Source of the DNA: Candidatus Heimdallarchaeum aukensis
Lineage (GTDB): Archaea > Asgardarchaeota > Heimdallarchaeia > Heimdallarchaeales > Heimdallarchaeaceae
DNA: 64,000 bases
NCBI GenBank assembly: GCA_021513695.1
Contig: CP084166.1
Span: 544,001-608,000 of the forward strand
Direction of reading: 5' to 3'
The position numbers and the translations under genes were made by a program. Shown piece after piece: positions 2,260-25,276 of this stretch; position 1 is the stretch's first letter, and the number at the start of each line of letters is the position of its first letter. The notes below the pieces were generated by a model. That model saw nothing but the letters and a program-made list of their open reading frames with translations, was not told where the DNA came from and made no database searches.

Positions 2260-3960
2260 ATGAAAAAAAAAGCGAAAATACTTTTTTTACTAATTGTTTT
2301 CTCAAACTTAGTTTTTGTTTTGGTAACAAATACAAAAAACATTAATGCATTAAAAGAGCCTATTACTAGTGATTCTAATGAATTTCGAGCGTATAGTTTT
2401 GCTGTTCCTTACATGTACACTGATGTTACGATAAAGAAAGATGGCTCGATAGATATTTCTTATACCATTAACTTTACAAATTTTATTTTTGGAAATACTA
2501 TTGACATTATAGATATTGGTTTTCCTAATAAACATTACAATCTTAAAAGTGTTCAAGCTTGGATAGATGGTTATGAGATTACTGATATAAGGGAGAGTGA
2601 ATACATTAGTATAGGAGTAGAGATACATTTAGGTAGTCATTCTATTTTACCTGGTGAGAGCGCTGTATTGGTAGTTAAAGGGAATAATCCTAAAATGGTT
2701 TTTAAAGACGATACCAAAAAAAATTTTGCTAGTTGTGTTTTCAGGCAAACTTGGTTTAGTTCACAATTTGCTTTTGGAGAAACTGAAAGAAGAGTGAGAT
2801 TTTATTTTCCTGAAGATTTAACTGATATGAATGAAGTAGAAAAAAGAGTTTCGGACACTAGTGTAAATTTCACTAGGGAAGCAGATTACGTCGAGTTTAG
2901 CAAAACCAGTACTCCCTATGATAATGATTTTTATGTGGGTGTAGGAATACCTTCTAACTATGTTGATAAAATGTATAGGGAGTTTTGGGTTTATAGATTT
3001 GATGAACTTGTTGCTCAAGCATTGTTTTTCCTTTTCTTCTTTGGATTCTTTGGGATATTTTTCTATGTTTTTTGTATTTATCCCCTAAAAGAAAGAAAAA
3101 GATATCTCCCTCCAACTATAAAGTCGACAGGAGGAGCTGTAAGAATGGGTTTGAAACCTTCCGAAGCAGCTATTATCTTAGAAAAACCTCTTACTCTTGT
3201 AGCTTCTTTAGTTATTTACGAAATGATGTCAGAAGGATTGATTACTGTTAAACAAAAAGAACCCTTAAGATTTAAAGTTGAGATATCTACTAAAGAGAAA
3301 TCCAAATTACCTACTTACCAGAAGCATATTATTAATGGAATTAAGAAAAGAGAAAAATCAGACTTAAAATGGGAAAAGGGAAGTGTTTCTGGTGCTCGAC
3401 CACACGATCCTTTTGACCAAGATTACATAAGAAAAGCGCTTTTATCCTTAATTAGAGAAACAACTATGAAAATGAAAGGGTATAACCTGAAGAAAACAAA
3501 GAAGTACTATAATGAATTAATAGAAAGAGCTTGGCAAGACATGAAAAAAGAAAGACCAGAACTAGAAAATGCTTTCCTATGGATAATGATAGATGAAGAT
3601 TATGACGACAGAATGAAAGATCATTATCATGACTATTATTACCCTTCATGGTATGTTTATCATTATCATACCCATTATTATGGTAGAAATAGAGGAAGAG
3701 GAAGAGATAGGATAACTGGTAGAGAATTAAGAAAATCTGGTTTTAGAAGAACAAAGATAACAGATAGGGGACAGATAATCCCTGGAACAGATTTCAAGCG
3801 AATACAAAAAAATATTGTTAGAAGCCCAAGAAAATTACTTTCGTCAGTAAAATCAAAGACCAGACCTGTTTCTAGCAGCTCGGGAAGAAGTGGAGGGGGA
3901 GGAGGAGGTTGTGCTTGTGCTTGTGCTTGCGCTTGCGCTTGTGCCGGAGGAGGACGATAA
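2260..3960 (+). CDS. DUF2207-like membrane protein with a (Cys-Ala)6 C-terminal tail. It has a signal anchor, an extracellular domain, a polytopic TM block, a cytoplasmic domain, a His/Tyr-rich stretch, and a Gly-rich tail ending GGGGGGCACACACACACAGGGR.
   Basis: GGAG Shine-Dalgarno sequence 8 nt upstream. The architecture and Gly-rich C-terminus resemble DUF2207/YciQ-like proteins. Its stop codon lies 1 nt before the start of the next gene. Confidence 0.6.
   Translation: MKKKAKILFLLIVFSNLVFVLVTNTKNINALKEPITSDSNEFRAYSFAVPYMYTDVTIKKDGSIDISYTINFTNFIFGNTIDIIDIGFPNKHYNLKSVQAWIDGYEITDIRESEYISIGVEIHLGSHSILPGESAVLVVKGNNPKMVFKDDTKKNFASCVFRQTWFSSQFAFGETERRVRFYFPEDLTDMNEVEKRVSDTSVNFTREADYVEFSKTSTPYDNDFYVGVGIPSNYVDKMYREFWVYRFDELVAQALFFLFFFGFFGIFFYVFCIYPLKERKRYLPPTIKSTGGAVRMGLKPSEAAIILEKPLTLVASLVIYEMMSEGLITVKQKEPLRFKVEISTKEKSKLPTYQKHIINGIKKREKSDLKWEKGSVSGARPHDPFDQDYIRKALLSLIRETTMKMKGYNLKKTKKYYNELIERAWQDMKKERPELENAFLWIMIDEDYDDRMKDHYHDYYYPSWYVYHYHTHYYGRNRGRGRDRITGRELRKSGFRRTKITDRGQIIPGTDFKRIQKNIVRSPRKLLSSVKSKTRPVSSSSGRSGGGGGGCACACACACACAGGGR
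3901..3936 (+). repeat. Imperfect hexanucleotide microsatellite (TGYGCY)x6 inside the CDS, encoding (Cys-Ala)6
   Basis: The sequence reads tgtgct tgtgct tgtgct tgcgct tgcgct tgtgcc. It is preceded by a G-run (ggggga gga gga ggt). Confidence 0.8.
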
Positions 3961-3961
3961 A

Positions 3962-5284
3962 ATGCCAAAAGAAGAAAAAGAAGAACAGAAAAAGATGTTT
4001 CACCTAAGAAACGAAGAAACCTTTACTAGAATGCATTTAAGGAAAGAAAAGAAAGGACAAGGAATACTAATAGTTAACGCCAACAGAATCTTTCACCTAA
4101 ATAAAACAGCAACTCAATTCGTTGAATACATAATAGAAGGAAAAAAAGATGAAGAAATAATAAGAAAAATGGTTAACAAATACAATGTTCACGAATCACA
4201 AATAAGAACAGATCTAATGAATCTGAAGATCGCAATAGAAGATATAGTAAATAAACCAGATATTGACCCGGTACAAGAACTGTTTGACGAAGATATGGAA
4301 ATGGAGAGAATGATTTTTTCAGCTCCATTGAGAATGGACTTGGCTATAACTTACAAATGCAATAACAAATGTGTCAAATGCTACGTTGAAGAAAAAAGAG
4401 AAATAAAAGAATTAACAACAGAAGAATGGAAAAAAGTCTTAGATAAACTGTGGGATATAGGTATTCCCCACGTAACATTTACTGGAGGAGAACCCACAAC
4501 AAGAAAAGATTTAGTGAAACTAGTAGAATACGCAGAAGATATAGGCATAGTAACGGGACTAATAACCAACGGAAGAAACCTGAAAGACAAAAAGTTAGTA
4601 GAAGAACTAGTAGCAGCAGGAATAGATCATTTCCAAATAACAATAGAAAGCCATATACCAGAAGTACATGATAAATTAACAGGAGTAAAAGGATCGTGGG
4701 AAGAAACAGTAGAAGGAATAAAAAACGTTGTACCTACACCAGTGTTTATTATGACAAACACAACTCTAGTTCCAGAAAACATAAAAGAAATAGATAAAAC
4801 AATAGAATTTTTAGCTAAGTTGGGAATAGACCACTTCGCAGCAAACGGAATAATAAAAGCTGGAGGAGGAAAAGATGACTCACTAGACTTAACAGTAGAA
4901 GAACTAAACAAAACACTAGATACAATAATGAAGAAAGCTGAAGAAATGAAAATGAGATTTCTATGGTACTCACCAACAAGATATTGTGAATTTAACCCAG
5001 TAAAGAAAGGACTAGGAGTAAAACAATGTACAGCAGGAAATATAGCAATGGCAATAGAACCAGATGGACAAGTAATACCATGCCAAAGCTACTTTGAACC
5101 ACTAGGAAACATATTAACTACTCCATGGAAAAAAATATGGAACCATAAAACAACAAAAAGAATAAGAAAAAGAAAATACTTGCCCCAAGAATGCAAAGGC
5201 TGCCCAGAAAAAGAAATATGCGGAGGAGGATGCCCTCTAAATTATCAAGCGCCAATAACTGTTTGCAGAGACGCTCTTTCGTAA
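3962..5284 (+). CDS. Radical SAM/SPASM-domain peptide-modifying enzyme with an N-terminal PqqD-like RRE domain
   Basis: GGAGGA Shine-Dalgarno then ATG at 3962. The CNNKCVKC stretch matches CxxxCxxC. A C-terminal Cys-rich SPASM region is present (CTAGN...CQ...CKGCPEKEICGGGCP). The N-terminal ~80 aa (GILIVNANRIFHLNKTATQFVEYI...) fits a PqqD/RRE fold. The annotated ORF start at 3890 is an upstream in-frame extension overlapping the previous gene. Confidence 0.75.
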   Translation: MPKEEKEEQKKMFHLRNEETFTRMHLRKEKKGQGILIVNANRIFHLNKTATQFVEYIIEGKKDEEIIRKMVNKYNVHESQIRTDLMNLKIAIEDIVNKPDIDPVQELFDEDMEMERMIFSAPLRMDLAITYKCNNKCVKCYVEEKREIKELTTEEWKKVLDKLWDIGIPHVTFTGGEPTTRKDLVKLVEYAEDIGIVTGLITNGRNLKDKKLVEELVAAGIDHFQITIESHIPEVHDKLTGVKGSWEETVEGIKNVVPTPVFIMTNTTLVPENIKEIDKTIEFLAKLGIDHFAANGIIKAGGGKDDSLDLTVEELNKTLDTIMKKAEEMKMRFLWYSPTRYCEFNPVKKGLGVKQCTAGNIAMAIEPDGQVIPCQSYFEPLGNILTTPWKKIWNHKTTKRIRKRKYLPQECKGCPEKEICGGGCPLNYQAPITVCRDALS

Positions 5285-5348
5285 TCTTAACAATATCAAA
5301 AAAAATAAAAAAGTATTTTTTACCATTTTTAATAGGATAAGTAAAATT

Positions 5349-5640
5349 ACATCTTTTTTCCTTTTCCTGTTTTTTCCCATTCACTAAACTTATCTATTAG
5401 TTCGTCAATAGCATGTGTTATCTCTTCAGTGATTTTTTCAACAATAATTAATTTGTCATCTTCAATTCGAATAGACAAAATAGAACCGAGTTCAACCAAC
5501 CATAATTCAAGTTCATTAAGATCTTCAAAACCTAATTTTTCCTGTAAAGTAATTAAAGGTATTTTAGAATTATTAGATAGGACTTTGAATAATTTTTAGC
5601 TCTTTCTATTTCAATATCGCGAGAATCAAAATAGTTCATT
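5349..5640 (-). pseudogene. Orphan 3' cassette that is a near-identical copy of the last ~95 codons of gene B (8618-8900). It encodes ...IPLITLQEKLGFEDLNELELWLVELGSILSIRIEDDKLIIVEKITEEITHAIDELIDKFSEWEKTGKGKKM* and has no start codon, with an upstream in-frame stop and a 1-nt deletion.
   Basis: Direct nucleotide comparison of 5341-5640 against 8621-8900 shows about 90-95% identity. The homology begins at the stop codon of gene A (gaagaaaaaatgaactattttgattctcg compared with gaagaaaaaataaactattttgattctcg in gene B). Confidence 0.65.
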
Positions 5641-8335
5641 TTTTCTTCCCCTTTCCTTTACGTTCCCACTCACTGAACTGTTTGAGTAAATCATCAATAG
5701 CTGTAGTCATATCTTCAGAAACAAATTCGCCCTCAAATTGTAAGTCAAAGATTACTTCGTCTCTTTCGATTCTATTCGGTACATCCTTTGAATAGATGTA
5801 TAACCATAATTTCATAATCTCTATATCTTCAAAATCTAATAATGGAGAAAGCTTATTTAGACTTATTTTGTCGTAAACTAAACTAATTTTCTTAAGACGG
5901 TCAAGTATTTTATTATTAGTTTTTTTATCATTAATTATTTTTGTTAATTCAGACAATGTTCTATTATCTTCATCCAGTATATCTTTAACTATCGTTACTT
6001 TCTTTGTTGCAAAATCAAAAACTTCTGACCAATTATGTGCAAAAGATGGAAATAGTTTCTTAATTGTAGAAAAAGTATCACCTTTAAAAGAGATTATATA
6101 ATTTAAGAATGATAGCAATTTTTTATAACTAGCTATTATAGGCTTAAACTCTTGATCAGACCACTTTTCAATGAGTTTAGTTAACATTTCTTTTTTGAAA
6201 CTTTGTAAATTTGTAAAATTAATAAGATCAACTAAATAATTTATTTTACTGAGAACGGTATTATTTACGAAATAATCTAATTGATCATATGTTTTGTTTA
6301 ATTGTTCTCTTTCTATTTTTCTTAATTTTCTCTTATTTGAGCTGATAAAAAGGTAATCTTTAAGAAATAGTTTCAATTTTTCAAGATATTTTATAATCTC
6401 CTCAATTGAACTAATAAATAATAGTAAGGAAGAAGTGTTTATGAAAATCTTATCAAATTCTTCATTTAATTTAGTTTGCATATTTATTATCCCTGAGAAA
6501 TTTTCTCTTATCCTTAACCTTATTTTGTGTTCATAAACAAAAAAAAGAGGTAGGATAACAGATATAAGAAGTATAAGAGAAAAACATATTTTTTCAATTG
6601 GTTTAAGATAAATACTCTTTTTTAAAGGATTTTTACCATTTTCTATTTCCCAACCATCGAACAAACCGTCATCATCAGTATCAGAATCTAAAGGGTCAGT
6701 TCCAGCTAGATACTCTTCCAAATTAGTTAAACCATCTCCGTCCAGATCTTCTGATGAATCATATAACAAAGGGTTTAATGAATTACATAGTTCCCATCCA
6801 TCAGGTATGCCATCATCATCAGTATCGGGATCATTAGGGTCAGTTCCAGCTTGATATTCTTCTAAATTAGTTAAACTGTCTTTATCTTTGTCAACATAAG
6901 TGTCATTACTCAAAGGATTCAATAAAAATTCTACTTCCCAACTATCAGGTATGCCATCATCATCAGTATCAGAATCTAAAGGGTCAGTAGAATGCAAGGT
7001 CACTTCTTGAAAATCAGATAAGCCATCATCGTCAGTGTCTGAATCTAAAGGGTCAGTACTGTAAATAGTCACTTCTTGAAAATCAGAAAAGCCATCATCG
7101 TCAGTGTCTGAATCTAAAGGGTCAGTACTGTAAATAGTCACTTCATCTCCATCGTTCAAGCTATCATCGTCAGTGTCTGAATCTAAAGGGTCAGTACTGT
7201 AAATAGTCACTTCATCTCCATCGTTCAAGCTATCATCGTCAGTGTCAGAATCCAAAGGGTCAGTAGAATTCTGATACTCTTCTAAATTAGTTAATCCATC
7301 GCTATCTGGGTCTTCTGCAGAATCATCGATAGTAGTGTTTAAACCATTATTTTCTTCCCATTTGTCAAGCATATTATCTTGGTCTAAGTCTACATGCATG
7401 GGATAAGGATCAAAATTGTTAGCTGAACCATCTATAGGATATGGTCCTGTTCCACTCCAGTCATACCAATAGTTACCTGTTGTACCAGAATAAAATTTAT
7501 TGTATGTCCCATAATCACATGCTTGAGAAGAACCACCTAGATTATTTTTTATTAAGAAGTTTTTTACAAATATTTCATTTTTAGAGCTCTCATTTAGATA
7601 TATACCATAAGAATAACTATTTATTATAATATTGGAAGTAAAAGTATTTTTGTTAGAAACATCAAAGAGAATACCATAATTACTACTATTTACAACAGTA
7701 TTTGAAATAAAAGAATTGTTAGAACTACAAGAAAAAAATATGCCATCATAATAACTATTTGTTATAGTATTGGAAGTAAAAGTATTATTAAAACTAGAAT
7801 GAAGAGACATACCATAATTACTACATATCACAGAGTTGAAGGTAAAAGTATTATTGTTACTACAATAGAGGAAAATACCTACATTATAGCTATTTATAGT
7901 ATTATTAAATACAGTTATTGTTCCATCTGCAACAGAATAAATATAAATACCATAAAATGAACTTGAACCGCCCCCTTCAAGATAACAATCTCGAATAAGA
8001 ATATACTTTGTTGTCCCAGATATCTTTATACCATGAGATGTAGAGTCAGTTATACTATAGTTTTCAATGACATAAGGGTTATCTTTTGTCCCAGAACCAG
8101 GAAAAACAGTAAGATCATCATCAGACTCAATAAGAATAGGCGAATGAACTGTATAAACTTTTTTTACAGCTCTAGTTTCATTTGAATTTACACTAGACAT
8201 TGAATCTATTGTTATTTGATTAGATTGTAGAACCATATTTTCCTCTATTTGAGTCGAAAGGTAAACAAAGAAAACTGTAGTTGTTATTAATATTAGTACT
8301 AAACTTAATTGTATATAAGTTGCTATTCTTTTCAT
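5636..8335 (-). CDS. Receptor-like surface protein A (899 aa). It has a signal anchor, a parallel beta-helix (PbH1/NosD-like) domain, 8 or more thrombospondin-type-3-like Ca-binding repeats ([18 protein letters not shown]), a single TM helix, and a ~300-aa cytoplasmic coiled-coil domain with a conserved C-terminal module (...[19 protein letters not shown]).
   Basis: Sequence motifs as listed. The GNYWYDW cap motif is shared with other beta-helix paralogs in the window. Confidence 0.8.
6957..7270 (-). repeat. Near-perfect tandem 63-bp repeats (about 5 copies) encoding the TSP3-like units [23 protein letters not shown] of gene A
   Basis: Repeated string atcatcgtcagtgtctgaatctaaagggtcagtactgtaaatagtcacttc... 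is seen directly. Confidence 0.8.
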
Positions 8336-8617
8336 TTTTCAACCCTAGATACTCTAACTCTAAAGTAAATGCTTATTGAACATTTTCAAGATTTTAAATT
8401 TGAGTCACTTAATATTAAACAAAATACTAATTAACTTTTTCTACTAAACTTTGATTAATGTATAATCTGCACACATTAGGATGAAAGAAACTAAACTGTT
8501 TTTAGAGAAAAAATTCAAAATAAATGAACCACATTCAGTTATAACTAAAAAAATTCAGTGATTTTAATTAATATGTATGCTTCACAAAAACAACATGAGA
8601 TTTTCAACATTCTTTTT

Positions 8618-11600
8618 TCATTCTTTTTTACCTTTTCCTGTTTTTTCCCATTCACTAAATTTATCTATTAGTTCGTCAATAGCATGTGTTATCTCTTCAG
8701 TGATTTTTTCAACAATAATTAATTTGTCATCTTCAATTCGAATAGACAAAAAAGAGCCAAGCTCAACCAACCATAATTCAAGTTCATTAAGATCTTCAAA
8801 ACCTAATTTTTCTTGTAAAGTGAATAAAGGTATTTCAGAAGTAGTGGATAAAACCTTGAAGAATTCTTTAGCTCTTTCTATTTCAACATCTCGAGAATCA
8901 AAATAGTTTATTTTTTCTTCTATTTTTTCTTTTAATTCATTGTATTGTTCTATTCCATTGCTGGATAGCTCTCCTACTGTCTCTGTGTTCATAACCCTAC
9001 TATAATTTTCTTTCCAGTTAGCTAATTTTTCGTCAAACTCTTTAAAATATAACTCACTTTCTGTTATTTTTCCTTTTAGAGAATACACAAACAGATTATC
9101 TATTTCTTTTCTTAGCTCTTCTCCTTTTTTATCTAACAATATTAAAGGATAAAGATAAATAAGATCTCGAACTTCTTGTCTCTTATTTTCTATTTCTTGT
9201 AATTCCTCTAACAAGTCTTTTCTTTCTTCATTGGTTATTTGTTTAGAAAGAATTTCAAGTTTAGATTGAAAAAAATCACGAAAACCATCTGTTATCTCTA
9301 ATAACTTTTTTACTTTCTCGTAGTTAATATTAATGTTTAAGTCTTGTTGATTAATTATTTCTTTCTCTATTTCTAAAAATTCATCAAAGGTTTGTTTTTT
9401 GTGTATCTTAATTTGATTAATGTACGCATTTAATTCTTCTTTTGAAATTTGCTCATCAATATTTTTGATTTCATAGATCTTGGAAGAAAGCAAAGCATTT
9501 CGTATATCTATTTTTTCTATCTCTTTGGCATAGATTAAGTACTCATTACTTAATTCTTTGAATTCAAAAAAGACTTTAGCTATCCTTTTATTATAGTTAT
9601 CAAGATCAATTTTTTTATAATCGTTCTTTTGCACATAGCTATTGATCTGTTGCAAATCAGAGAGCAGTTGTTGCTTCTTTTCTAATATTTTATTCAACAA
9701 TAAGATATATTCATCTGTAATTTTTCTTTCTAATTCAGTCTTAATTTGTGATAACTTTTCTATAAAATCATTAATCTCCCTTTTCACTTTTTCAAATTCA
9801 ATAATATTTTTCTTTCCAATTATAACCTTAAATAAATTAAACTTTGAGCGATAAGAACCAATAATATTATCTAATTGTTTAGCACTATTAACCCATTCTT
9901 TAAAATTATCAGGTGAATATGATTGAAGAAGATATTCATCTATTTTTTCCTTAAATTTATTAAATTCCAAAAATTGTTTATTATATTCGTTCTTCAGTTG
10001 GATGATTTTTTCTCTCTGTTTTTTCTTAATTAATAAAATAGTTGTTGTTACGCTTCCTATTACCAAAAAACTCAATAGACAGGAAAGCACAATTTTAATT
10101 TTTTTTGCTCGAGGATTGCTTAATTTATTTAATGGATCACTTCCATAAATGATTATTTCATCATAATCATTAAATTTGTCATCATCTGTGTCATTTTTTG
10201 TTGGATCTGTGTGGTAAGCATATATTTCTTCATAATCAGATAAACCATCTCCATCAGTGTCAGAATCTATGGGATCAGTTAAGAAAACTATAACTTCTTG
10301 ATAATCAGTTAAACCGTCGCTATCTGAGTCTTTCTTATAAGGAAAAGAATGAAATATTTTAACTTCTTCATAATCACTTAATTTATCATCATCAAAATCC
10401 CCATCTCTTATACATCCTCCAAAAATAACTTCATCATAATCATTAAGACCATCACCATCAGTGTCATTGAAATTAGGATTAGCCATCCACTGATATTCTT
10501 CTAAATTTGATAAGCCATCTCCATCAGAATCGGCCTTGGAGTCATCTAAATTATAGACAATTTCCCAAGCATCTTCCATTCCATCAGAATCAGAATCATT
10601 CTCGACAGATGCAACTCGCCTAGGAAAGATATCTCCAATTTTATTTCCATAAATAGAATAAAAATTGGTAGTACCATCCCAATCTTCCCATAAATTGCCA
10701 ACTAGTAAAGTAGGAGAATACCAGTAAGTGTTAGTGCCATAATCTTCATTATTATCTTGAATCTTCAAAAAAGAATTATTGAAGACTATGTTATAATCTC
10801 CTCTTTCACCAATCCTTACTCCCCCTAAACCTGTTCCACAAAAAAGGTTATTATAAATCAAACTGTTACTTACTTCGAAACCATAACTAATAGCAAAATT
10901 AGTTGAATTATAGATATTGTTATTACTAATAACAACGTTATTACATCTTTCTAAATATAATCCATCTGATGTTGCTCCATTTATCAAATTATCAGAGATT
11001 ACAATTTCACTATTACCACTTGACCATAGGCATGAAGCCCAATCATTAGTTGTTTTTTCTAAATTATTGTAAAAGATTTTTATTTTTTTATTATCTCTAA
11101 CTCCAATGCTTCCTGCTCCATTAGTTATACATGTGTTTTTTATAATTGTAACATTTGAAGATTCAGAAACTAAAATACCAAAACCAGAGTTATTGGCAGA
11201 ATAATTATTTTTTATCAAGCTATCTCCAGATTGATGTACCAACACGCCATATTGATTATAAAGAAGAGTACAATTCTCAACTATTACACCACCTGCTCTA
11301 GTTTCAGAAGAAATCCCAACTTCATAACCTTGAATAAAACAATTCCTAATTATTACGAAAGAACTAACATAACGAATAACAATACCACAAGAATTTTCTA
11401 AATACTCAGTATCACCAGTTGAAACTTCATAGTTCTCAATTATATAAGGGTCTGCTTCAGTTCCTGAACCAGGAAACCCAAACTTTACAAAGTCTTCTTC
11501 ACTATTGATTTCTATCGGTGAATGAACAATATAACGTGTTTCTTTAGCATTGTTTCTTTCGGCAATTGCTTTTTGACAAGAACTACCATGGTTTATTTGT

Positions 11601-11875
11601 CTGTAGCTTGAAGTTAAATTATGCTTATCAATTGAGCGATAATTATCATATTCTTTTCCATTCTCTGTTTTATTGTTATTAAATTTAGAAGCCTTTTCAT
11701 CTACATAATTATCTATTAGGTGAAAAGTTGGAGTAAGAAAAAGAAAAATAACTAAAGAAACAATAATTCTTTTATAGTTTGGAAATATATTGTTTAATAT
11801 TTTCATTTCTAGAACAAGTATATACATTACAATAAAAAAATAAAAGTTTTTCTTCACTATTTCTTTTCTTTTCAT
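8618..11875 (-). CDS. Receptor-like surface protein B (1085 aa). It has a signal anchor, a beta-helix domain, TSP3-like repeats (DSDGDGLSNLEEY, DTDGDGLNDYDE...), a TM helix, and a ~550-aa Lys/Glu-rich coiled-coil cytoplasmic domain with the type-2 C-terminal module (...ELIDKFSEWEKTGKGKKE).
   Basis: Paralogous to gene A in the beta-helix and TSP3 repeats. The C-terminal module matches the orphan cassette at 5349-5640. Confidence 0.8.
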   Translation of the reverse strand: MKRKEIVKKNFYFFIVMYILVLEMKILNNIFPNYKRIIVSLVIFLFLTPTFHLIDNYVDEKASKFNNNKTENGKEYDNYRSIDKHNLTSSYRQINHGSSCQKAIAERNNAKETRYIVHSPIEINSEEDFVKFGFPGSGTEADPYIIENYEVSTGDTEYLENSCGIVIRYVSSFVIIRNCFIQGYEVGISSETRAGGVIVENCTLLYNQYGVLVHQSGDSLIKNNYSANNSGFGILVSESSNVTIIKNTCITNGAGSIGVRDNKKIKIFYNNLEKTTNDWASCLWSSGNSEIVISDNLINGATSDGLYLERCNNVVISNNNIYNSTNFAISYGFEVSNSLIYNNLFCGTGLGGVRIGERGDYNIVFNNSFLKIQDNNEDYGTNTYWYSPTLLVGNLWEDWDGTTNFYSIYGNKIGDIFPRRVASVENDSDSDGMEDAWEIVYNLDDSKADSDGDGLSNLEEYQWMANPNFNDTDGDGLNDYDEVIFGGCIRDGDFDDDKLSDYEEVKIFHSFPYKKDSDSDGLTDYQEVIVFLTDPIDSDTDGDGLSDYEEIYAYHTDPTKNDTDDDKFNDYDEIIIYGSDPLNKLSNPRAKKIKIVLSCLLSFLVIGSVTTTILLIKKKQREKIIQLKNEYNKQFLEFNKFKEKIDEYLLQSYSPDNFKEWVNSAKQLDNIIGSYRSKFNLFKVIIGKKNIIEFEKVKREINDFIEKLSQIKTELERKITDEYILLLNKILEKKQQLLSDLQQINSYVQKNDYKKIDLDNYNKRIAKVFFEFKELSNEYLIYAKEIEKIDIRNALLSSKIYEIKNIDEQISKEELNAYINQIKIHKKQTFDEFLEIEKEIINQQDLNININYEKVKKLLEITDGFRDFFQSKLEILSKQITNEERKDLLEELQEIENKRQEVRDLIYLYPLILLDKKGEELRKEIDNLFVYSLKGKITESELYFKEFDEKLANWKENYSRVMNTETVGELSSNGIEQYNELKEKIEEKINYFDSRDVEIERAKEFFKVLSTTSEIPLFTLQEKLGFEDLNELELWLVELGSFLSIRIEDDKLIIVEKITEEITHAIDELIDKFSEWEKTGKGKKE

Positions 11876-12044
11876 TATTTCATTTTAAAGTAGTTTATTT
11901 ATCAAGTTCAACTTGCATAAAAGAATACAAATAAAACTAATACGAAAAATCGATGAAAAACATAAGATTCACAGAATGGATAAAATAAGACAGAAAAAAA
12001 ATATAATATTTCATATTTTTTTCTAAAAACTAAAATTAGTGAAA

Positions 12045-14030
12045 TTACTTCTTTTTCCCCTTTCCTGTACGCTCCCACTCACTAAACTGTTTAAGCAGAT
12101 CATCTATAGCTTCAGTCATATCTTCTGCCACGAACTCACCCTCAAGTTGTATATCGAACATTACTTCTTCTCCTTCTATCTGATTTGGTAAATCTTTAGA
12201 ATAAGCATATAACCATAGTTTCAAGACCTCTTTGTCTTCAAAGTCTAACAAAGGAGAAAGCTTGGTTAAACTTATTTTATTATAAACAGAACTAACTTTC
12301 TTAAGTCTTTCAAGTCTCATATTATTATTCTCACTATCATTAAATATTTTAGCTAACTCACCTAATAATTGTTCATTTTGTTCTAATAGTTCTTGGACAA
12401 TAACCAATTTTTCAGTAGCTAAATCTTTAATATCAGACCAGAAAGAGTCAGAAGAAGCAAATTTAGTAAAAGCTTTATGATCAATAAAAGCTACAATGTA
12501 ATTTAGGGTTGATAATATCTCTTCATAGCTGATAATTAGAGGTTTGAACTCCTTATCAGACCAATTATAGACAATGTTAGTTAACATTTCTTTAGTGTAA
12601 TCAAACAAATTTTTATAATCAATAAATTCAATTAATGAAACTACTTTATCATGAAGAGAGGAGCTGATAAAAGAGGTTATTTTTTCAAAAATCTTGTTAA
12701 ATTGTTCTTGTTTATTAGTTTTTAATCTTTTGCTGTTAGAATGAACAAAAATTAACTTTTCAAGAAGATTACCTAACTTTTCAAAATAGTCTTTTATCTC
12801 CTCTGCAGAAGAAACGAAAGAAATTAATGAAGAAATTTCTGTAAAAGTTTCCTTATACTTTCCATCTAATTCAGATTGTAAATGAATTACTTTTTCAAAT
12901 TTTTCCTTTACTTTTATTCGCATTATTAATACATGAATGGAGAATGTTACAAGAATAACAAATATAGGAAGTATAGCAAAATAACCTATTTTTTCTACTT
13001 GAGACAAATAAATATTCTTTTTTACAGGATTTTTTCCATTTTCTACTTCCCAACCGTCAAGCATACCATCTCCATCAGTGTCATTGTCCAAGGGGTCAGT
13101 AGAATAGATATGAACTTCTTGACCATCAGTCAGTCCATCTCCGTCACTGTCACTGTCCAAGGGGTCGGTATTGTAAGTATTTATCTCTTCATAGTCATCA
13201 AGTCCATCGTCGTCTGTGTCATTATCTATGGGGTTAGTACCTATTTGATACTCTTCTAAATTGGTCAAACCATCATTATCAAAATCCTCTGTAGAGTCAT
13301 CAATATTTGTGTCCAAGCCATTATCTTCTTCCCATTTGACGGGTATATTATCCTGGTCTAGATCCACATACATAGGATAAGGATCAAAGTTATTAGCGGA
13401 ACCATCTATTGGATATACTCCTGTTCCATTCCAGTCATACCAATAGTTCCCTGTTGACCCAGAATAAAACTTATTGTTTGTTCCCTCATCATACGCTTGT
13501 GAAGAACCACCTAAATTATTTTTAATTATGATGTTTTCCATAAAACTATTATTAGAGTATAACGGAGTCTTATACCATAAGAATTACTATTAGCTATAGT
13601 TTTAGAGCTAAAAATATTGTAAGAACTATTAAGAATATATACACCAATATAGCTACTGTTTGCTATGGTGTTAGAGGTAAAAATGTTATAAAAACTATAG
13701 CCTAGTTATATATTGTAGATACCACCATTTGTTATAATATTATTTATAAAAATATTATTAGAACTAGAACCGAGACTAATACAACACCAATCATTATTTA
13801 TAATTGTATTAAAAATAAAGTTGTTATTAGAACTATAACCTATTCGTATACCGTAATAACTAACAGTAATATTATTGAAAAAGAATGTGTTATTAGAGCT
13901 ATATTGAAGATTTATACCACTGGTAATTATATTTGTTATTTTATTAGAAATAAATGTATTATTAAAACTAGTTTCAATCCAAATACCATAATTCTTATTA
14001 TTTCTTTAGTACCAACAATAAGTTGACCGA
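12045..14030 (-). pseudogene. Degraded third paralog C of the receptor-like family. The annotated 498-aa ORF (12045-13541) retains the TSP3 repeats, TM helix and A-type C-terminal module, but the upstream beta-helix region (13541-14030) is broken by a frameshift and a stop codon, and the signal-peptide end is lost.
   Basis: Reverse-strand translation of 13541-14030 gives beta-helix repeats (YGIWIETSFNNTFISNKITN...) interrupted by TAA and a frame change. The ORF begins in the middle of the domain ([20 protein letters not shown], which matches [17 protein letters not shown] of gene A). Confidence 0.65.
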
Positions 14031-14272
14031 TTTCTATAGGTTAAAATTATAGAAGTCCATACTATCATTGTCGTGTTTCCAACACAAAGTTTTTACGATA
14101 ATTCGGAAGTACTATATTTCTTATAAAAAAATATAAAGTTGCAAAAAAACAAATTTACAAATTTTCCAACTACAACCATTATTCAATGTTAATGTTTTGA
14201 ATTCAATAATTATTCTCCTCTGTTGCCTTTTTTGGTTTATTGCAATCTTCTTTGTTGTTCTTTATTTCCTCT

Positions 14273-15061
14273 TCAAAGGTTGTTTAATAATTTGTTTAGA
14301 GTTAATCTAATTTCTGAACGAGTTTTATTATCAGGAATAAGAAAAGAGACTTTTACTCCATTACTTTTATTATAAAACATATCTGCTACTTCACGTAAAT
14401 TATTCTTAATTTCAATTAATTCCTCAGGAATTGGACTACTTTTAGGCAATTGTTCTACTTTTGCTTGATAAATGTCAAATAATACCGAATACAATATTTC
14501 GGTAGTAAAATAATATTTTTCATAATGAGAGTTTTTCCAATCCTCTTCTTTTAGATTTTTTTCTTTTATATGTTTGATTCCTTTATATTTTTTCCCACTC
14601 GCTAGCTCTTCAAGATAATAATGAGATTTTGCATGTTTTAAATACTTACCCTTGATAGGTGATTCTTTTTTAAATTCAGTAACATCAAGATGAAACGAGT
14701 ACGTAACTTTTTTCTCTGTATCATACTTTATAGGCCTTTCTAATAAAGAATAAAATATTACAAAAATTAATTTCGCTAATAATTTTGTATCACAGTCATT
14801 CTCATTTATTTCCTGTTCTATTCGCTCAAAAACTCCAAATCTTTCTAGTAGATAGATTTTATCTTCATTATTGAACAAAAATGTAACTAATTCTAAAATT
14901 ATATACTCTTTGTCATCACTATCAGAAGAAAAAGTGAAAAGATCTTTAAACTCATCAAAAACCTTTAGACGAAAGAGATAATCAAGATCACTGTTCTTAG
15001 CTGCGTATTTAACTGTTTCAAAGTAAAACATATTTATTATCACAAAACCAACAATGTTCAC
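14273..15061 (-). CDS. Hypothetical protein (262 aa). It abuts the transposase gene on the same strand and may be an IS passenger.
   Basis: Its start codon directly follows the transposase stop codon. No recognisable domain. Confidence 0.45.
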   Translation of the reverse strand: MNIVGFVIINMFYFETVKYAAKNSDLDYLFRLKVFDEFKDLFTFSSDSDDKEYIILELVTFLFNNEDKIYLLERFGVFERIEQEINENDCDTKLLAKLIFVIFYSLLERPIKYDTEKKVTYSFHLDVTEFKKESPIKGKYLKHAKSHYYLEELASGKKYKGIKHIKEKNLKEEDWKNSHYEKYYFTTEILYSVLFDIYQAKVEQLPKSSPIPEELIEIKNNLREVADMFYNKSNGVKVSFLIPDNKTRSEIRLTLNKLLNNL

Positions 15062-16000
15062 TCAATAGACCTGGGTTACACTTTTGGGTACTAGAGAAAC
15101 ATAGGGGTGATTCATAAATTTTTCTCCAGGAGTAAGGAGGTTAAGAGACTGGTGAGGACGGCTAAAATTGTAGTATGAGCGGTAGAAGGAGAGGTCGGAG
15201 TTACAGTAGGTTAGTCCTAGTCTTTTCATCTCACGGATAATGGTTCCATGTAGTCTTTCTACTTTTCCACATGTTTCGGGGTGAAAAACTCTAGATCTTA
15301 TGTGCTTTATTCCCTCTGTTTGACACCAACGGGAGAAGGTACTTGTTCCCCCTCTAACGGAGTAGAATAGTGCTCCATTGTCTGTGAGAATAGACTCGGG
15401 GTATCCATATTTTTCTACTGCTTCTTCTAACAGACTTATTATCTGCTCTTTTTTCGGTGCGAAAGGGTGGAGTTTAGCTCCCAGGCAGAATCGTGAGTGG
15501 TCGTCTATTAGAGTTATGAGATAAAGGTGTTGTCCTTGTTCTTCTACCCAGAAAGGTCCTTTCACATCTATCTGCCAGAGTTCGTTAGGGGATGAGCGCT
15601 CAAAACTCTTGTATTGAGTAATGTTTCTCTTTTTTCTATTACTCCACAGAGGAAGACCTAACTCCCCTATTACTTTAACTACTGTGTTTCGCGATAGTGC
15701 TCTTCCTTCTTTCTTCAACAGATAAACTATCTTCTCCACGTTCATTCCTTGCTTTACTCTTAACTCCCTTATCCTCTCTCTTAACTCCTCATTCACTTTC
15801 CTGTGTATAGTTTTAGGTCTAGATGATCTATCCTTCCACCATTCTCCTTCAGGGTTCTCCTTAAACCTTTTCAACCACTTATATACAAACTTCCTACTCA
15901 CCATATACCTGTGAGCTACCTCTTTTATCTTCTCTCCTTCCAAAGCTTTTTTAACCACAATCTTTCTTAGTCTCTCTAGGTTACGTTTGGGTTTGTTCAT
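15062..16000 (-). CDS. IS481-family-like transposase (N-terminal HTH plus rve/DDE integrase core)
   Basis: 312 aa with a WQIDVKG...LITLIDDHSRF...LTDNGALF...SRPHQSLN rve-type integrase-core signature. Element ends were not confidently defined (only an 8-bp gggttac-type match near 15073 and 16020). Confidence 0.75.
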   Translation of the reverse strand: MNKPKRNLERLRKIVVKKALEGEKIKEVAHRYMVSRKFVYKWLKRFKENPEGEWWKDRSSRPKTIHRKVNEELRERIRELRVKQGMNVEKIVYLLKKEGRALSRNTVVKVIGELGLPLWSNRKKRNITQYKSFERSSPNELWQIDVKGPFWVEEQGQHLYLITLIDDHSRFCLGAKLHPFAPKKEQIISLLEEAVEKYGYPESILTDNGALFYSVRGGTSTFSRWCQTEGIKHIRSRVFHPETCGKVERLHGTIIREMKRLGLTYCNSDLSFYRSYYNFSRPHQSLNLLTPGEKFMNHPYVSLVPKSVTQVY

Positions 16001-16034
16001 AATTCGTCACTTACCCTCGTAACCCACTTTCTAT

Positions 16035-16826
16035 TTATTTGTTACCAACGTGGGTAGAGTAAACAATCACAAAACCAACAAAGAAAGAAATAATAAATAT
16101 TAAAAAAATTGTTTCACCATCTGCAAAATTGGTGATAAAAGCATAACTGATACAAAATATCAAACTAAGAATATTTATTCCAATTTTGTAGTCATCTCCT
16201 AAAATCTGTAAATCTAAAGGTTTGTTTGCTACTTCCAAGTCTGAAACCTTGAAAAAACTTTGTAACAAAATAATGAAATATAACACATATACACCATTAT
16301 AAAACCAAGCAAACTTTGTTATTTTACTGGAACTTGCTCCTATTACAGCAGTAATATATTTTGGATCAAGAAATGATAAGAAAAAAGGAATTGCTATAAA
16401 AAATAACGAAAGGGGAAAATAATAGATTAAGATTAAAGCTCTATTATAAAGCGATATTTTTGATTTAACAATGCTATACGAAAGAAGATAGTTTTTTATT
16501 TTCTTTAGATATTCTCCGTCAATATTATTTTCTCTTTGCTCTCTTGTTTCAATATCCTTCTTAATCTCATTAATAGTTTTTTTAGTTGATACCAAGTATT
16601 TTACAATTCTTATTAAGAAAACAATTAAAAGTAAGGTCACAACCAAATTGATAATAAAAAATGTAGTAATTAAAAATGTAGAAAAACTCTTTTGAGACGC
16701 GAAAATGGAATACTTTATGCTGAAGAAAGAATTGACTAAAAAAGCAGTAAAAAGAATAACTACGATATTAGTGACTATATATGGTTTTATCTTTAAATAG
16801 TACCTTTCTAACAAGGTACTATACAT
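16035..16826 (-). CDS. Polytopic membrane protein of unknown function (263 aa), lying between two insertion sequences
   Basis: Multiple hydrophobic helices and no recognisable motif. Confidence 0.45.
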   Translation of the reverse strand: MYSTLLERYYLKIKPYIVTNIVVILFTAFLVNSFFSIKYSIFASQKSFSTFLITTFFIINLVVTLLLIVFLIRIVKYLVSTKKTINEIKKDIETREQRENNIDGEYLKKIKNYLLSYSIVKSKISLYNRALILIYYFPLSLFFIAIPFFLSFLDPKYITAVIGASSSKITKFAWFYNGVYVLYFIILLQSFFKVSDLEVANKPLDLQILGDDYKIGINILSLIFCISYAFITNFADGETIFLIFIISFFVGFVIVYSTHVGNK

Positions 16827-16875: not shown

Positions 16876-17651
16876 GGTAGTGTCTAGTTTTCTTCCGACA
16901 AAAATATTTGTGGGGACTCTAATAGTACGATATGAACATTCAAAAACTATCTACTCTTTTTAAGAGATGCAGAGTCCCCAAAAAGATAATAATAAAAGCT
17001 ATTTATGAATATATTGGTTCAAAGAATGGTTTGAGGACATAGCATTGAAGAATGGTTTAACACACCAAACATTATGGTATTGGGTAAAGAAGTTCAGGCT
17101 CTTTAGGGAAAGTTTACATAGAATTGTAGCAGAGAGAGGGGAATACCTGAGATTATAGTAGTAGATGAAACAGAGATTAAGACCTCTCAAGGCTCAATGT
17201 ATCTGTGGTTCGCATTAGATCCTTCCTTACAACAAGACTTTACTGGGTTTTAGTATTACTAAGGGACGGAGTAATCTTGAATGTTTACTAACTTTCCGTT
17301 ATTGGTTCTGGTTCAAATGTTGGTATGGGGTTTTAAGCCTCGTATTGTCGTTACAGATGCAGGGGTATGGTATCCTGTCTTACTTCGTCTCGGTATCAAA
17401 ATCTCCGTTATCAAAGGTGGTTTACGCTCCTATATTGAACTTTTTAATGCCACCCTTAAGAGTTATCGTTGGTTTCATTCTATTCTCCACTGCACTTGTC
17501 CTATCCGTGCTGTCTATGGCTCTACTCATCTTTCTGGTTTCCTTACTCTCTTTATGTTCTATTATAATTTTATTCGTCCTCATCAGAGTTTAGGACATCC
17601 TCCCCTTAGTTCCTTTTTACCTAGGAGGCGGTATAAAAACTAGACACTACC
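16876..17651 (+). mobile_element. IS6-family insertion sequence, copy 1. It is degenerate, with 16-bp terminal inverted repeats GGTAGTGTCTAGTTTT / AAAACTAGACACTACC and a perfect 9-bp direct repeat TTAAAAATC on both flanks (16867-16875 and 17652-17660).
   Basis: Aligned by eye to the intact copy at 40093-40854 at roughly 90-95% identity, with small indels. The inverted repeats and target-site duplication are read directly from the sequence. Confidence 0.85.
16929..17643 (+). pseudogene. Frameshifted IS6-family transposase gene (fragments include the ORF at 17281-17643)
   Basis: Homologous to the 232-aa transposase at 40149-40847 but carries a stop codon (ggacatagcattgaag) and indels. Confidence 0.8.
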
Positions 17652-17712: not shown

Positions 17713-18723
17713 TTATTGTTTCTTTCTTGCCATTAATTGTGTAGAAATACAAATAAAGAAAATAAGTAATATGTATATGTTTAGAAAAGAAGTTTTCGCA
17801 GTATCATCTCCATAATTGTTTATTCCTAAATAGTTTTCATTCTTCCATCCAGCTAAAGTCGCCCAAAACCACCAAGCAGAATAAGCTTTAAGATTAGCAT
17901 TTAAAGGTTGGGAATGAGCTGAAGCACAATTATACCATTCTATTCCTTCTTCATGTTTATTTTGCCATTCAATAGCCCAATTACCTGAATGTGTTCCATT
18001 ATTCCAACTACAATCATCACTTACATTTTTGTCTCCATAATAGTTTCCATCGGGATCATAAGATTCTATATCTGCAAAGTCATATAGTACTTTATTATTC
18101 TCTTTGCAGAATTCTCTTATTTGCTCGTTCCTTTGATGTAAGTTTCCTTCTAAACCTGTTCCATCAGTGTGACCAGTCATATAGACAAAAATCACGTCAG
18201 GAAACTCTTGTTCGAGAATACTCATAGGTGTTAGATAGTGGTTAACTAGTTCTTCTTCCGACATCCAGCTCAGTTGACCACACCAACTCCACATTATGAC
18301 ATTCACATCTTTATTGTTCATATCTTGTAAAAAGGCTCTTGTAGCATTAGACCATTGAGAATAACCTGCATCAGCTGCTTGACTTGGATCAGGAGCATAG
18401 CTTGCTATAGTATTATCTTCTAGAAAAGAGGAATTGTAAGAAAAGAGTCCTTGAGTTCCTCCATTTGCTTCCTTAAAGGAAGGCAAATCAGACATACCTG
18501 TAATAATTTGCGAACCGTGACTGGTGTGCTGATAAGCTATGTGCAATTTATTCTTTGCTTCAATAATTGCTTCATCTGGAATTTGGTTCAATCTAACTAG
18601 ATTAGCTATTGAATGATCAGCTATTATTTGTGCAGTGTTTGTACTGCCAGAAACAAAATTTCCAGTTCTAACAATAAATGGAAGCAAATTAATAAAGCAT
18701 GTCCAAAAATTCTTTTTCACCAA
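17713..18723 (-). CDS. Secreted hypothetical protein (336 aa) with a C-terminal TM anchor. Its start codon and first ~9 codons lie inside the inverted repeat of the adjacent IS5-like element.
   Basis: N-terminal hydrophobic segment, Trp/Asn-rich soluble domain and C-terminal hydrophobic tail. atggtgaaaaagaatttttggacatgc is the inverted-repeat sequence. Confidence 0.45.
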   Translation of the reverse strand: MVKKNFWTCFINLLPFIVRTGNFVSGSTNTAQIIADHSIANLVRLNQIPDEAIIEAKNKLHIAYQHTSHGSQIITGMSDLPSFKEANGGTQGLFSYNSSFLEDNTIASYAPDPSQAADAGYSQWSNATRAFLQDMNNKDVNVIMWSWCGQLSWMSEEELVNHYLTPMSILEQEFPDVIFVYMTGHTDGTGLEGNLHQRNEQIREFCKENNKVLYDFADIESYDPDGNYYGDKNVSDDCSWNNGTHSGNWAIEWQNKHEEGIEWYNCASAHSQPLNANLKAYSAWWFWATLAGWKNENYLGINNYGDDTAKTSFLNIYILLIFFICISTQLMARKKQ

Positions 18724-20632: not shown

Positions 20633-21757
20633 CTAAATTATCAATACTCGTTTAAGATTTTGCTCAACTATTTTTTTGAGTAATTTTTCTGAAGTTTCAT
20701 CGAAATTTACAAATCCAGGGTCAATTTTTGAAGCCAGAACAGGATTTTCTTGTAATTCTCTTAAAAGCACATTTAATACAGTCTCTAAAGTTTTATCAAA
20801 TCTTTCTCCAAAAACATATGCTTGGAGAAATCCTGTGGCTGTCGTTCCTATAACTTTGTCTTTGTAAACGACAGTATTGAGTTCAGATTTTCTTTCCATT
20901 ATTTCTTCTAAAGCTTTGGTTACACCAGAGATTAAACCAGAGGTTAAATCTATAGAAACTTCTTTATTAATTTCTTCTTTATCAGAAGTAAAATCATTAT
21001 AATAAACAGGTAATCCACTATCAGTGGTAATCAACAATTGATTTATCTTAGCATTAGATATCATTATATTAAAAGGATCTATTAACAGGGTTATAGACCA
21101 AATAAACCATCCTGCAGCCATTAGAAAAGGTCGTATCGCTCTGAGTATATAACTACTAGAAAAAACTGCAAAAATAACCCAGATAATTATGATGATAAAT
21201 CCAACCACTTGCACAAATAACTGCTTTTTAATGTCTGGATCTTCTGTTCTAAAAAGCTTTGTTGAAATAGGAAGAATAAAAGAAACAATGAAAAAAAGTA
21301 ACATAGGAGCTGTAAGAGCAGGTATCCATATACTATACTTCGCAGTCCAAGCGCCAAGAGTTTCAGAATAACTCAATTCAGTAAAATCAGGTAAAATAAA
21401 AGCTAAAAATAATGCTCCGCCCAAAAAACTAACGATGTTAACAACGGGATGTAGACGATTTGTTTTGAAGTAGATAAAGGAGTAAAAAACGAGAATCATA
21501 CCAAGAATTAATAGACAGTTAAAAAATGACCAAATGGATGAAATTAAGTAAAAGTTATCAAAAATCACCAAGTTTTTAGTAAAAAAGGATGTTATGAACC
21601 GACCTACAGAATCAAATGCCCAAAAAACATAACTCATTCCCAGTAGAAAATGAGAAAGAAAATGTGTTTGTTTGTATGTCTTAAATAAAATAAAACTGCT
21701 TGTAATGAAAGTCAGTTGTTCAAACAAAAATAATCCTATCGAGTAATAAGAAATCAT
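20633..21757 (-). CDS. Polytopic membrane protein with a C-terminal soluble domain (possibly roadblock/LC7-like; weak)
   Basis: About 8 hydrophobic helices followed by a ~130-aa soluble tail (LITTDSGLPVYYND...GLISGVTKALEEIM...). Confidence 0.4.
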   Translation of the reverse strand: MISYYSIGLFLFEQLTFITSSFILFKTYKQTHFLSHFLLGMSYVFWAFDSVGRFITSFFTKNLVIFDNFYLISSIWSFFNCLLILGMILVFYSFIYFKTNRLHPVVNIVSFLGGALFLAFILPDFTELSYSETLGAWTAKYSIWIPALTAPMLLFFIVSFILPISTKLFRTEDPDIKKQLFVQVVGFIIIIIWVIFAVFSSSYILRAIRPFLMAAGWFIWSITLLIDPFNIMISNAKINQLLITTDSGLPVYYNDFTSDKEEINKEVSIDLTSGLISGVTKALEEIMERKSELNTVVYKDKVIGTTATGFLQAYVFGERFDKTLETVLNVLLRELQENPVLASKIDPGFVNFDETSEKLLKKIVEQNLKRVLII

Positions 21758-24562: not shown

Positions 24563-25276
24563 ATGTTTCATGACTTTCAAGTTCAAGATGGTATTAACCT
24601 TTACAATTCCAATGGTTTTATTATAAAAAATAATACCATTTCCTATGGCGGGTATGGACTATTTGTATCTGAATCTTCACACGGGGTATATACTAATAAT
24701 ACTTGTATAGAAAATAGCAAATATGGTGTTTATATAAAATATGGATACAACATTTCTATCAATGAAAACAACTGCAGCGCTAATGATCAAGGTATAAATC
24801 TTTACAACTCTTCTACAATTTATATCCACAATAATAGCATAAGTAAAAACACTATTGGACTGACTTTTGATCTCTCTAATCATTCAATCATCACTTTTAA
24901 TTCATTTGAGAAGAATGAACAATATGCAATAATTATGGATTCTTCATCTTCTTCTAATCTCATCCATCATAATACGTTTATTGACAACAACTTGCAAGGA
25001 ACATCTCAAGCTTGTGATAATGGTCATAATAATACTTGGTATGACCAATCAACAAAAACTGGTAATTATTGGTCTGATAGAAAAGGGATAGGAAAATATT
25101 ACATAGATGGTAATAGTAAATCGTATGATAAATACCCCCTAAAAAATCTCCCTCAACAATGTGCTGAAAAAACTTCTATTGATTTTCTCATCATTCTGAT
25201 CTCTTTTCTCTCTACAGTTATTTTGTCTTATGTCATAAGAAACAAGTATGCATTCAGACAATTACGATTTAGATAG
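24563..25276 (+). pseudogene. 5'-truncated duplicate of the beta-helix surface protein gene at 32042-33466 (corresponding to its region ~32780-33466)
   Basis: About 93% nucleotide identity by direct comparison. The fragment begins mid-domain at ...DFQVQDGINLYNS and abuts the subtilase fragment on the opposite strand. Confidence 0.65.

Follow-up and report, generated by a model that had tools for sequence, protein, structure and literature searches.

The question raised by this locus is whether it exchanges the cytoplasmic ends of the proteins it codes for. Three paralogous genes for receptor-like proteins, called A, B and C, lie on the minus strand of a 64,000-nt stretch of the Candidatus Heimdallarchaeum aukensis chromosome (contig CP084166.1, positions 544,001 to 608,000; called the window below, to which all positions refer unless a contig is named), and a partial copy of the 3' end of gene B begins at the stop codon of gene A. 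The circularised genome was described in a paper that does not discuss these genes (PMC8813620). The translated ORF of gene C is identical to an NCBI protein of this species. The initial annotation had proposed that the copy is an orphan cassette of a system swapping C-terminal output modules between receptors. We arrived at a different overall reading, which we regard as probable: A, B and C would represent a birth-and-death family of surface proteins that share a docking tail, and the copy next to gene A would be a single recombination scar.

Architecture of the family and its C-terminal module

The presence of three same-strand paralogues, with gene C as a pseudogene, was borne out by their open reading frames (ORFs), Pfam matches and hydropathy. 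They have one layout in common, consisting of a signal anchor, a beta-helix, thrombospondin type 3 (TSP3) repeats, a single transmembrane (TM) helix, a helical cytoplasmic region and a C-terminal module of about 90 amino acids (aa), which occurs in two classes described below. Gene A (5636..8335, minus strand) is intact and, as judged from its ORF, Pfam matches, hydropathy and an AlphaFold2 (AF2) model, is predicted to code for a type I surface protein of 899 aa. Its parts are the signal anchor (about 8258-8314), the beta-helix (about 7451-8041), the TSP3 repeats (about 6647-7390), the TM helix located by hydropathy (6533-6589, aa 583-601), the helical cytoplasmic region (5924-6532), a class I module (5639-5923) and the TGA stop codon (5636-5638). 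Gene B (8618..11875, minus strand) codes for 1085 aa counted from the first ATG, with a beta-helix at about 10676-11515, TSP3 repeats at about 10157-10597, a TM helix located by hydropathy at 10037-10093 (aa 595-613), a helical region of 377 aa between the TM helix and the module, and a class II module at 8621-8905. Because the orthologues of gene B in the sister species Ca. H. endolithica begin with MKILNN at the equivalent of Met24, the first 23 codons (11807-11875), which are absent there, are probably not translated, and the annotated start may be too far upstream. Gene C (12045..~13993, minus strand) is a class I pseudogene. Its annotated ORF of 498 aa (12045-13541) includes TSP3 repeats, the TM helix (12924-12980, aa 188-206, again by hydropathy) and a class I module (12048-12332), and the signal anchor and the start of the beta-helix, i.e., the first ~170 codons, are missing. 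Upstream of the ORF, PbH1-like repeats extend as far as ~13993 in a different frame that is interrupted by a stop, leaving frame-shifted remnants at 13547-13993.

The extracellular building blocks were identified by Pfam matches above threshold, namely NosD (PF05048, 63-66 bits vs. a cutoff of 23.6), Beta_helix (PF13229, 56-62 bits vs. 25.9) and TSP3_bac (PF18884, 70-73 bits vs. 25) in A and B, and TSP3_bac in C. The TSP3 motif DxDxD[GSKN]xx[DN]xxE occurs 11 times in A, seven times in B and four times in C. By hydropathy analysis, a hydrophobic anchor lies at the N-terminus of A and B, and all three proteins have a single later TM helix, which is followed by basic residues. The cytoplasmic parts comprise 298 (A), 472 (B) and 292 aa (C) with 32-38% charged residues, and that of A was modelled as all-helical by AF2, at a mean pLDDT of 61, with values of 70-89 for most of residues 30-200 and low ones elsewhere. 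The initial description of these parts as Lys/Glu-rich coiled coils of 300-550 aa is thus supported for the charge and, by the model of A, for the helicity, with a length range of 292-472 aa; the coiled coil as such is putative. A fold search with the whole cytoplasmic domain yielded generic helical bundles alone (E>0.3) and no PCI-solenoid match upstream of the module. Between A and B, protein identity amounts to ~35% in the ectodomain and ~24% in the mid-cytoplasmic part.

The conserved C-terminal module that had been noticed in all three genes was confirmed by sequence comparison, with the consensus YxxIxLxxLAxLLxFxDxxxLExWLxxL…IxGDxVI…AIDxLLxxFxxxExxGxGKx. A winged helix had been suggested as a fold worth looking for, and structure prediction and Foldseek both gave a positive answer. 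Modelled alone by AF2, the module reached a mean pLDDT of 78.5 and showed the order H-b-H-H-b-b followed by a C-terminal helix, and most of the top 40 Foldseek matches in the PDB were PCI subunits of the proteasome lid, the COP9 signalosome (CSN) or eIF3, at E values of 4e-3 to 0.1. The Pfam PCI model was reached by six of 62 wider family members (E<1e-3, best E 1.4e-7). The models therefore point to a PCI-like winged helix with an additional C-terminal helix and a basic GKGKK tail.

A winged helix behind a TM helix may bring to mind membrane-tethered one-component regulators that bind DNA, following the logic of ToxR and CadC with reversed polarity and perhaps released by proteolysis. We consider this quite improbable. 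The winged helix of A, B and C is strongly acidic (net charge -9 to -14), which speaks for contacts with proteins rather than with DNA; the eight C-terminal residues are basic (+3 to +6). Moreover, helix 3, which lies where a recognition helix would be expected, has a hydrophobic and acidic character (LExWLxxL), the top structural and Pfam matches are PCI-type winged helices of the protein-interaction kind, and the module is joined to dozens of unrelated proteins.

The side of the membrane on which the module resides is indicated by its other carriers. Because it is also found on proteins without any TM-like segment (41 of 83) and on TPR, HEAT and Zn-ribbon proteins, a cytoplasmic location is likely, and type I topology for A, B and C with an intracellular module is supported by this domain logic together with the hydropathy profiles.

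Variation in the sister species and in the population

A family cluster in the same surroundings was found in Ca. H. endolithica (contigs L001 and L002, merged), where the flanks correspond to those in the window with a radical SAM gene, a 562-aa protein, a 173-aa protein and a luciferase-like gene. It contains eight members of full length (A' to H'), of which two are inverted, and two interspersed copies of an IS481-family insertion sequence. Searched as far as A' by hidden Markov model and tblastn, this cluster returned exactly eight modules, each of which closes a long ORF, with no fragment among them. We then divided the 11 genes of both species into ectodomain, mid-cytoplasmic part and last 95 residues and compared the identities of these parts. 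The modules fall into class I (A, C, A', C' and G', 71-87% mutual identity) and class II (B, B', F', D', E' and H', 61-95%), and the module is the most conserved part of the proteins: the identities of ectodomain, middle part and module are 49, 41 and 84% between A and G', and 34, 32 and 91% between E' and H'. This reverses the initial picture of a variable C-terminal module, and it departs from contingency loci, in which a variable module is attached to a conserved N-terminal body.

These data bear directly on the proposal that the fragment is a silent cassette, i.e., stored sequence from which recombination at Lys/Glu-codon microhomology swaps class I and class II modules and re-wires the output of the receptors. 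What speaks for it is that ectopic exchange at the 3' ends is real. The module DNA of E' and H' is 87-96% identical, compared to 41-77% upstream, on proteins that otherwise share 32-34% of their residues, and the B-type gene F' ends with 36 nt that are the same as the class I terminus of C'. High nucleotide identity across classes I and II is confined to the codons for FSEWE..GKGKK, which therefore would be a natural site of such exchange. Conversion tracts also occur elsewhere in the family. B' and F' share tracts of 100% identity, and a tract of ~360 nt is 100% identical between D' (minus strand, L001 ~10727-11087) and E' (plus strand, ~16923-17283), flanked by sequences of 60-80% identity; for paralogues on opposite strands that are otherwise ~55% identical, this is best read as a recent inverted gene conversion. 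Judged from these patterns, ectopic gene conversion among paralogues appears to be frequent in the family, and pseudogenes common. The part of the original proposal that invoked recombination at the locus therefore stands in the form of ectopic conversion at conserved 3' ends, and the cassette system does not: the module class disagrees with the ectodomain class in none of the 11 genes, and the eight-gene H. endolithica cluster lacks any fragment.

The same conclusion was reached from a second haplotype of the H. aukensis locus, represented by contig L011 (JGI 3300033150, Ga0366835_1014334), whose arrangement recurs in contigs L007 and L008 of two more metagenome samples. Between 4797 and ~9815, L011 and the window are 100% identical, over a stretch comprising the end of the radical SAM gene, the fragment, all of gene A and the cytoplasmic half of gene B. 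Beyond this point, up to 13204, identity turns into a mosaic of 72-99% over the ectodomain of B and drops to 65-84% over the neighbouring class I gene. Because the breakpoint lies near the TM helix of B, with the variable half at about 10000-11875, the extracellular portion is the variable one; what varies in the population is the ectodomain of B, and its cytoplasmic half is invariant. For an Asgard population, the locus thus illustrates clearly how a hypervariable ectodomain can be combined with a cytoplasmic half that does not vary. A swappable cytoplasmic output module is contradicted both by the congruence of the classes and by these two haplotypes, which are 100% identical over both cytoplasmic halves and carry the same fragment next to differing B ectodomains.

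Other module-only ORFs were encountered as debris of pseudogenes. The class I gene of the second haplotype (L011 230-3568, L007 115-3453), present in two metagenome samples, has a full length of 1112 codons with two in-frame nonsense codons just past the TM helix, a TAA at codon 835 and a TGA at codon 938 in place of a conserved Trp. Its product would be a membrane-anchored ectodomain without the tail, and the nonsense codons leave a module-only ORF of 128 aa (P0005). In contigs L009 and L010, an internal deletion of ~560 nt in a class I gene leaves a module ORF of 91 aa (P0096), and L004 contains fragmented family genes. The orphan cassettes expected in related genomes were not found, with none in the eight-gene cluster and these two module-only ORFs being pieces of genes inactivated by nonsense codons or deletion.

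Traces of rearrangement are also present at the border of the cluster. Directly upstream of the truncated gene C, a stretch of 131 nt (14006..14136, no strand assigned), the vestige of family members since lost, is 82% identical to the intergenic region that separates the convergent genes C' and D' in H. endolithica. It is followed by an IS481-family insertion sequence (15054..16074, minus strand, transposase at 15062-16000), and the two copies located between family members in H. endolithica (L001 5773-6787 and 13026-14045) are 87-88% identical to the one in the window. These elements probably contribute to rearrangements of the cluster.

The fragment downstream of gene A

The fragment itself (5350..5637, minus strand) is a B-type 3' end which appears to be non-functional. 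A copy of ~290 bp attached to the stop codon of gene A by microhomology had been noted initially, and we confirmed it in independent assemblies: positions 5354-5648 are 93-94% identical over ~295 nt to 8625-8920, the homologous stretch on the minus strand of gene B, and the junction is an 11-nt microhomology, GAAGAAAAAAT (5638..5648, minus strand), which occurs both in the last codons of gene A (…G-K-K-K) and, within B-type genes, at an E-E-K-I/M-N site. In relatives of A, the end reads GGGGAAGAAAAAATAA, and the present TGA of gene A was therefore probably donated by ATGAAC of a B-type gene. The fragment ends with a TAA stop codon, followed by a 62-nt flank (together 5285..5349, minus strand, AAAAAGATGTAATTTTACTTAT…). 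The family of repeats is large and rich in AT, and the duplication might in principle have been created during assembly by collapse or mis-joining. We rejected this explanation, whose probability is practically nil, because the identical junction recurs base for base in the independent Logan SRR15988958 (L003) and JGI 3300033150 (L011) contigs; moreover, fragment and B copy differ at 22 sites.

The fragment had further been taken to encode an intact B-type module. This holds for its last 82 codons (5350-5595), which keep the frame of gene B and contain a class II module 92.5% identical to that of B. It does not hold for the fragment as a whole: because of a 1-nt deletion between 5594 and 5595, the B frame is limited to these codons, and the sole ATG (5639-5637), which overlaps the TGA of gene A, opens an ORF of just 29 codons with a dead end. 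Read-through or a programmed frameshift joining A to the fragment was also considered and rejected. The frame of gene A meets a TAG after 10 codons, the ATG leads to nothing but the short ORF mentioned, and the A5 run where the base was lost does not form a canonical slippery heptamer.

The differences between fragment and gene B are distributed unevenly, with 17 in the first 110 nt (~85% identity) and one in nt 171-291. Of the 22 differing sites, eight are unique to the fragment, five are unique to B, and nine match B-type genes of other genomes, including an ATG codon seen in F'. Because of this uneven distribution and the matches to other genomes, the fragment looks like a mosaic, and a simple recent duplication of B was rejected on the same grounds. 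The near identity of its 3' half with B is one more point that could be counted in favour of a silent cassette; opposed to it are that there is a single fragment and that it is frameshifted. In view of all these data, we regard a silent cassette as very improbable.

With regard to the origin of the fragment, two scenarios were weighed. In the first, it would be the rest of a full B-type gene that once followed gene A, of which a single microhomology-mediated deletion from the stop of A to the internal GAAGAAAAAAT site removed the first ~2.9 kb. The order of the genes agrees with this, as B' comes after A' in H. endolithica and the array alternates between class I and B-type genes (A'-B', E'-F'-G', C-B-A). 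It would also account for a 5' half that differs from the present B and shows the states of B-type genes from other genomes, including the ATG codon of F', and one event suffices. We nevertheless consider a deletion unlikely. The last three codons of the fragment and the 62-nt flank resemble the end of class I genes and the sequence downstream of it (gene C: AAGAAGTAATTTCACTAAT), with alignment significances of p<0.003 for C and p=0.013 for E', and are unlike any B-type flank (p=0.6-0.99), although a simple deletion should have taken away a class I-like flank. When the 62-nt flank was compared with the intergenic region that adjoins the radical SAM gene in H. endolithica, no homology was found past the stop codon.

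Because the B-type patch has A-type terminal sequence on both sides, we favour a template switch or misaligned gene conversion. According to this scenario, the GAAGAAAAAAT microhomology would have been the point of entry into a B-type gene and the conserved GKGKK codons the point of return to A, so that ~290 nt of B-type sequence came to lie between the coding end of A and its own terminus and flank. Such an event would have kept the reading frame of A, left the protein unchanged and provided a new stop codon, and the insert would later have been partly homogenised with B and acquired its frameshift. This is the most likely mechanism as far as we infer it from the sequences. Under either insertion or deletion, the fragment is best interpreted as a one-off, dead recombination scar and not as a cassette. 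The contingency-locus layout is thereby contradicted by an observation, a one-off scar, which the initial annotation had itself named as speaking against it.

Other features of the neighbourhood were recorded as well. Next to the flank of the fragment, a radical SAM/SPASM enzyme with a PqqD-like domain is encoded at 3890-5284 (plus strand), and the start of its gene is overlapped by that of a 566-aa protein (2260-5284 is the extent of the pair, plus strand), which has an N-terminal hydrophobic, signal-like segment and ends with ...SGGGGGGCACACACACACAGGGR. Both this pair of genes and the (CA)5 tail have been conserved in H. endolithica. The 566-aa protein looks as if the substrate motif of a peptide maturase had been fused to the C-terminus of a large protein; the NCBIfam maturase matches are below threshold. 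On the other side of the cluster, ORFs of 262-476 aa on the minus strand (14273-15061, 16035-16826, 17713-18723, 20633-21757 and 22647-24077) gave zero Pfam matches, and further surface-type proteins with beta-helix, FG-GAP/propeller and TSP3 domains are encoded on the plus strand at 24563-25276, 27043-29805 and 32042-33466, all without the C-terminal module. This region of the window is rich in genes for surface proteins.

Distribution and predicted role of the module

The distribution of the module was analysed by a profile search over 1.84 billion representative proteins, in which the counts refer to representative clusters. We obtained 88 matches at E<1e-3 and 18 at E<1e-10, and nearly all of them are located at the extreme C-terminus. 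The N-terminal parts of the carriers are highly diverse, comprising beta-helix/TSP3, LRR, LVIVD, TPR, HEAT and Bmp solute-binding domains, beta-propellers, zinc ribbons, a UEV domain and a UFL1-like tandem winged-helix region, with 0 to ~9 TM-like segments. Among 20 carriers that were looked up, all six named clusters belong to Heimdallarchaeota or Heimdallarchaeaceae. A scan of metagenome contigs with the module alignment gave no match, the module has no Pfam model of its own, and our literature search revealed no description of it. Since the named carriers are all heimdallarchaeal, the sequence data suggest a Heimdallarchaeia-wide cytoplasmic domain with a predicted docking role.

The proteins may work as follows. 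Outside the cell, a carbohydrate-binding or adhesin-type beta-helix would be presented on a Ca-binding TSP3 stalk, and mosaic gene conversion, involving both paralogues and alleles, would diversify this ectodomain rapidly. On the cytoplasmic side, the TM helix would be followed by an all-helical spacer and the conserved PCI-like winged helix with its helix and basic GKGKK tail. The module could act as a docking or oligomerisation unit, with the winged helices placed edge to edge and the C-terminal helices bundled as in PCI complexes, and in this way connect various surface proteins with one another or with a cytoplasmic partner that they have in common; the membrane, or an acidic partner or surface, would be contacted by the basic tail. 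For this reading of the tail, which would link many membrane proteins in the manner of PCI winged helices, we see about even chances. Going further, the module might be a Heimdallarchaeia-wide address tag that plugs dozens of receptors, transporters and cytosolic proteins into one scaffold, such as a PCI-type assembly, an ESCRT/ubiquitin-like machinery or the cytoskeleton, with the beta-helix/TSP3 genes as its fast-diversifying adhesin clients; this extension is tentative, and we think it rather doubtful. If it were true, the module would represent a prokaryotic forerunner of eukaryotic sorting or anchoring by receptor tails and adaptors in the closest archaeal relatives of eukaryotes. If the module were a common docking domain, it would still point to surface proteins being connected in an organised way with a scaffold in the cytoplasm, in the lineage of archaea nearest to eukaryotes. 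The remaining interest of the locus is therefore in a conserved intracellular module shared by unrelated membrane and soluble proteins, and not in the fragment.

Several observations weigh against the overall reading of a surface-protein family with a docking tail and one scar. The Pfam PCI model (PF01399) matches only weakly, giving no match in A and B and an E value of 0.093 in C (13.4 bits vs. a cutoff of 22), and two module profiles searched against PDB sequences gave no significant match, with eIF3a and CSN3 at E 0.04-0.6. The type I topology was predicted from hydropathy and domain logic, and gene B counted from the first ATG would have two N-terminal hydrophobic segments, the second of which is weak. 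The flank similarity that favours an insertion over a simple deletion extends over ~70 AT-rich bases, and the tally of fragments covers the H. aukensis window and the H. endolithica cluster, not the rest of the H. aukensis chromosome. Finally, the docking function is one that we infer.

Comparison with known systems shows where the family agrees with established types and where it departs from them. The module shares the winged-helix order H-b-H-H-b-b, as far as its structural model goes, with the PCI proteins (PF01399) of the 26S proteasome lid (Rpn), CSN and eIF3. Unlike these, it is located behind a TM helix on membrane proteins, ends with the GKGKK tail and shows marginal sequence similarity; the helical region upstream of it did not match a PCI solenoid, and we identified no set of partners like those of the lid, CSN or eIF3. 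A further comparison was made with the eukaryotic UFM1 ligase (DDRGK1/UFBP1 and UFL1); DDRGK1 has no ectodomain, and there is no sequence homology to A, B and C.

Polymorphic toxin cassettes (Rhs, CdiA) and silent-cassette variation (pilS, vls) resemble the locus in having a promoterless 3' fragment next to a full-length paralogue and gene conversion within the family. However, the C-terminus or exposed part is variable in those systems and their cassettes are multiple and intact, whereas here the C-terminal module is conserved and the single fragment is frameshifted, invariant and not followed by an immunity-like gene.

Bacterial TSP3/beta-helix surface or cohesion proteins, such as CglD and MtsD of Myxococcus and NosD-like PbH1 proteins, have the building blocks of the ectodomain in common with the family. 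The NCBIfam matches to CglD and MtsD are far below the cutoffs (49 vs. 400 bits), and these proteins do not possess a TM helix with a PCI-like cytoplasmic domain. Other archaeal membrane proteins with a small C-terminal PCI-like winged helix are the membrane-associated Ser/Thr kinases from euryarchaeal ESCRT loci, for which oligomerisation or an interaction between winged helices has been proposed; the same study reported HTH/PCI domains in Asgard ESCRT-linked proteins (Makarova et al. 2024, PMC10936438). We liken these kinases to the family by architecture and not by homology of the modules. They carry kinase and Ig-like N-terminal parts instead of a beta-helix with TSP3 repeats, and the window contains no ESCRT neighbourhood. 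As judged from the sequences, what would be new in A, B and C is the combination of adhesin-like TSP3/beta-helix proteins, which are of a kind already known, with a lineage-specific PCI-like cytoplasmic domain.

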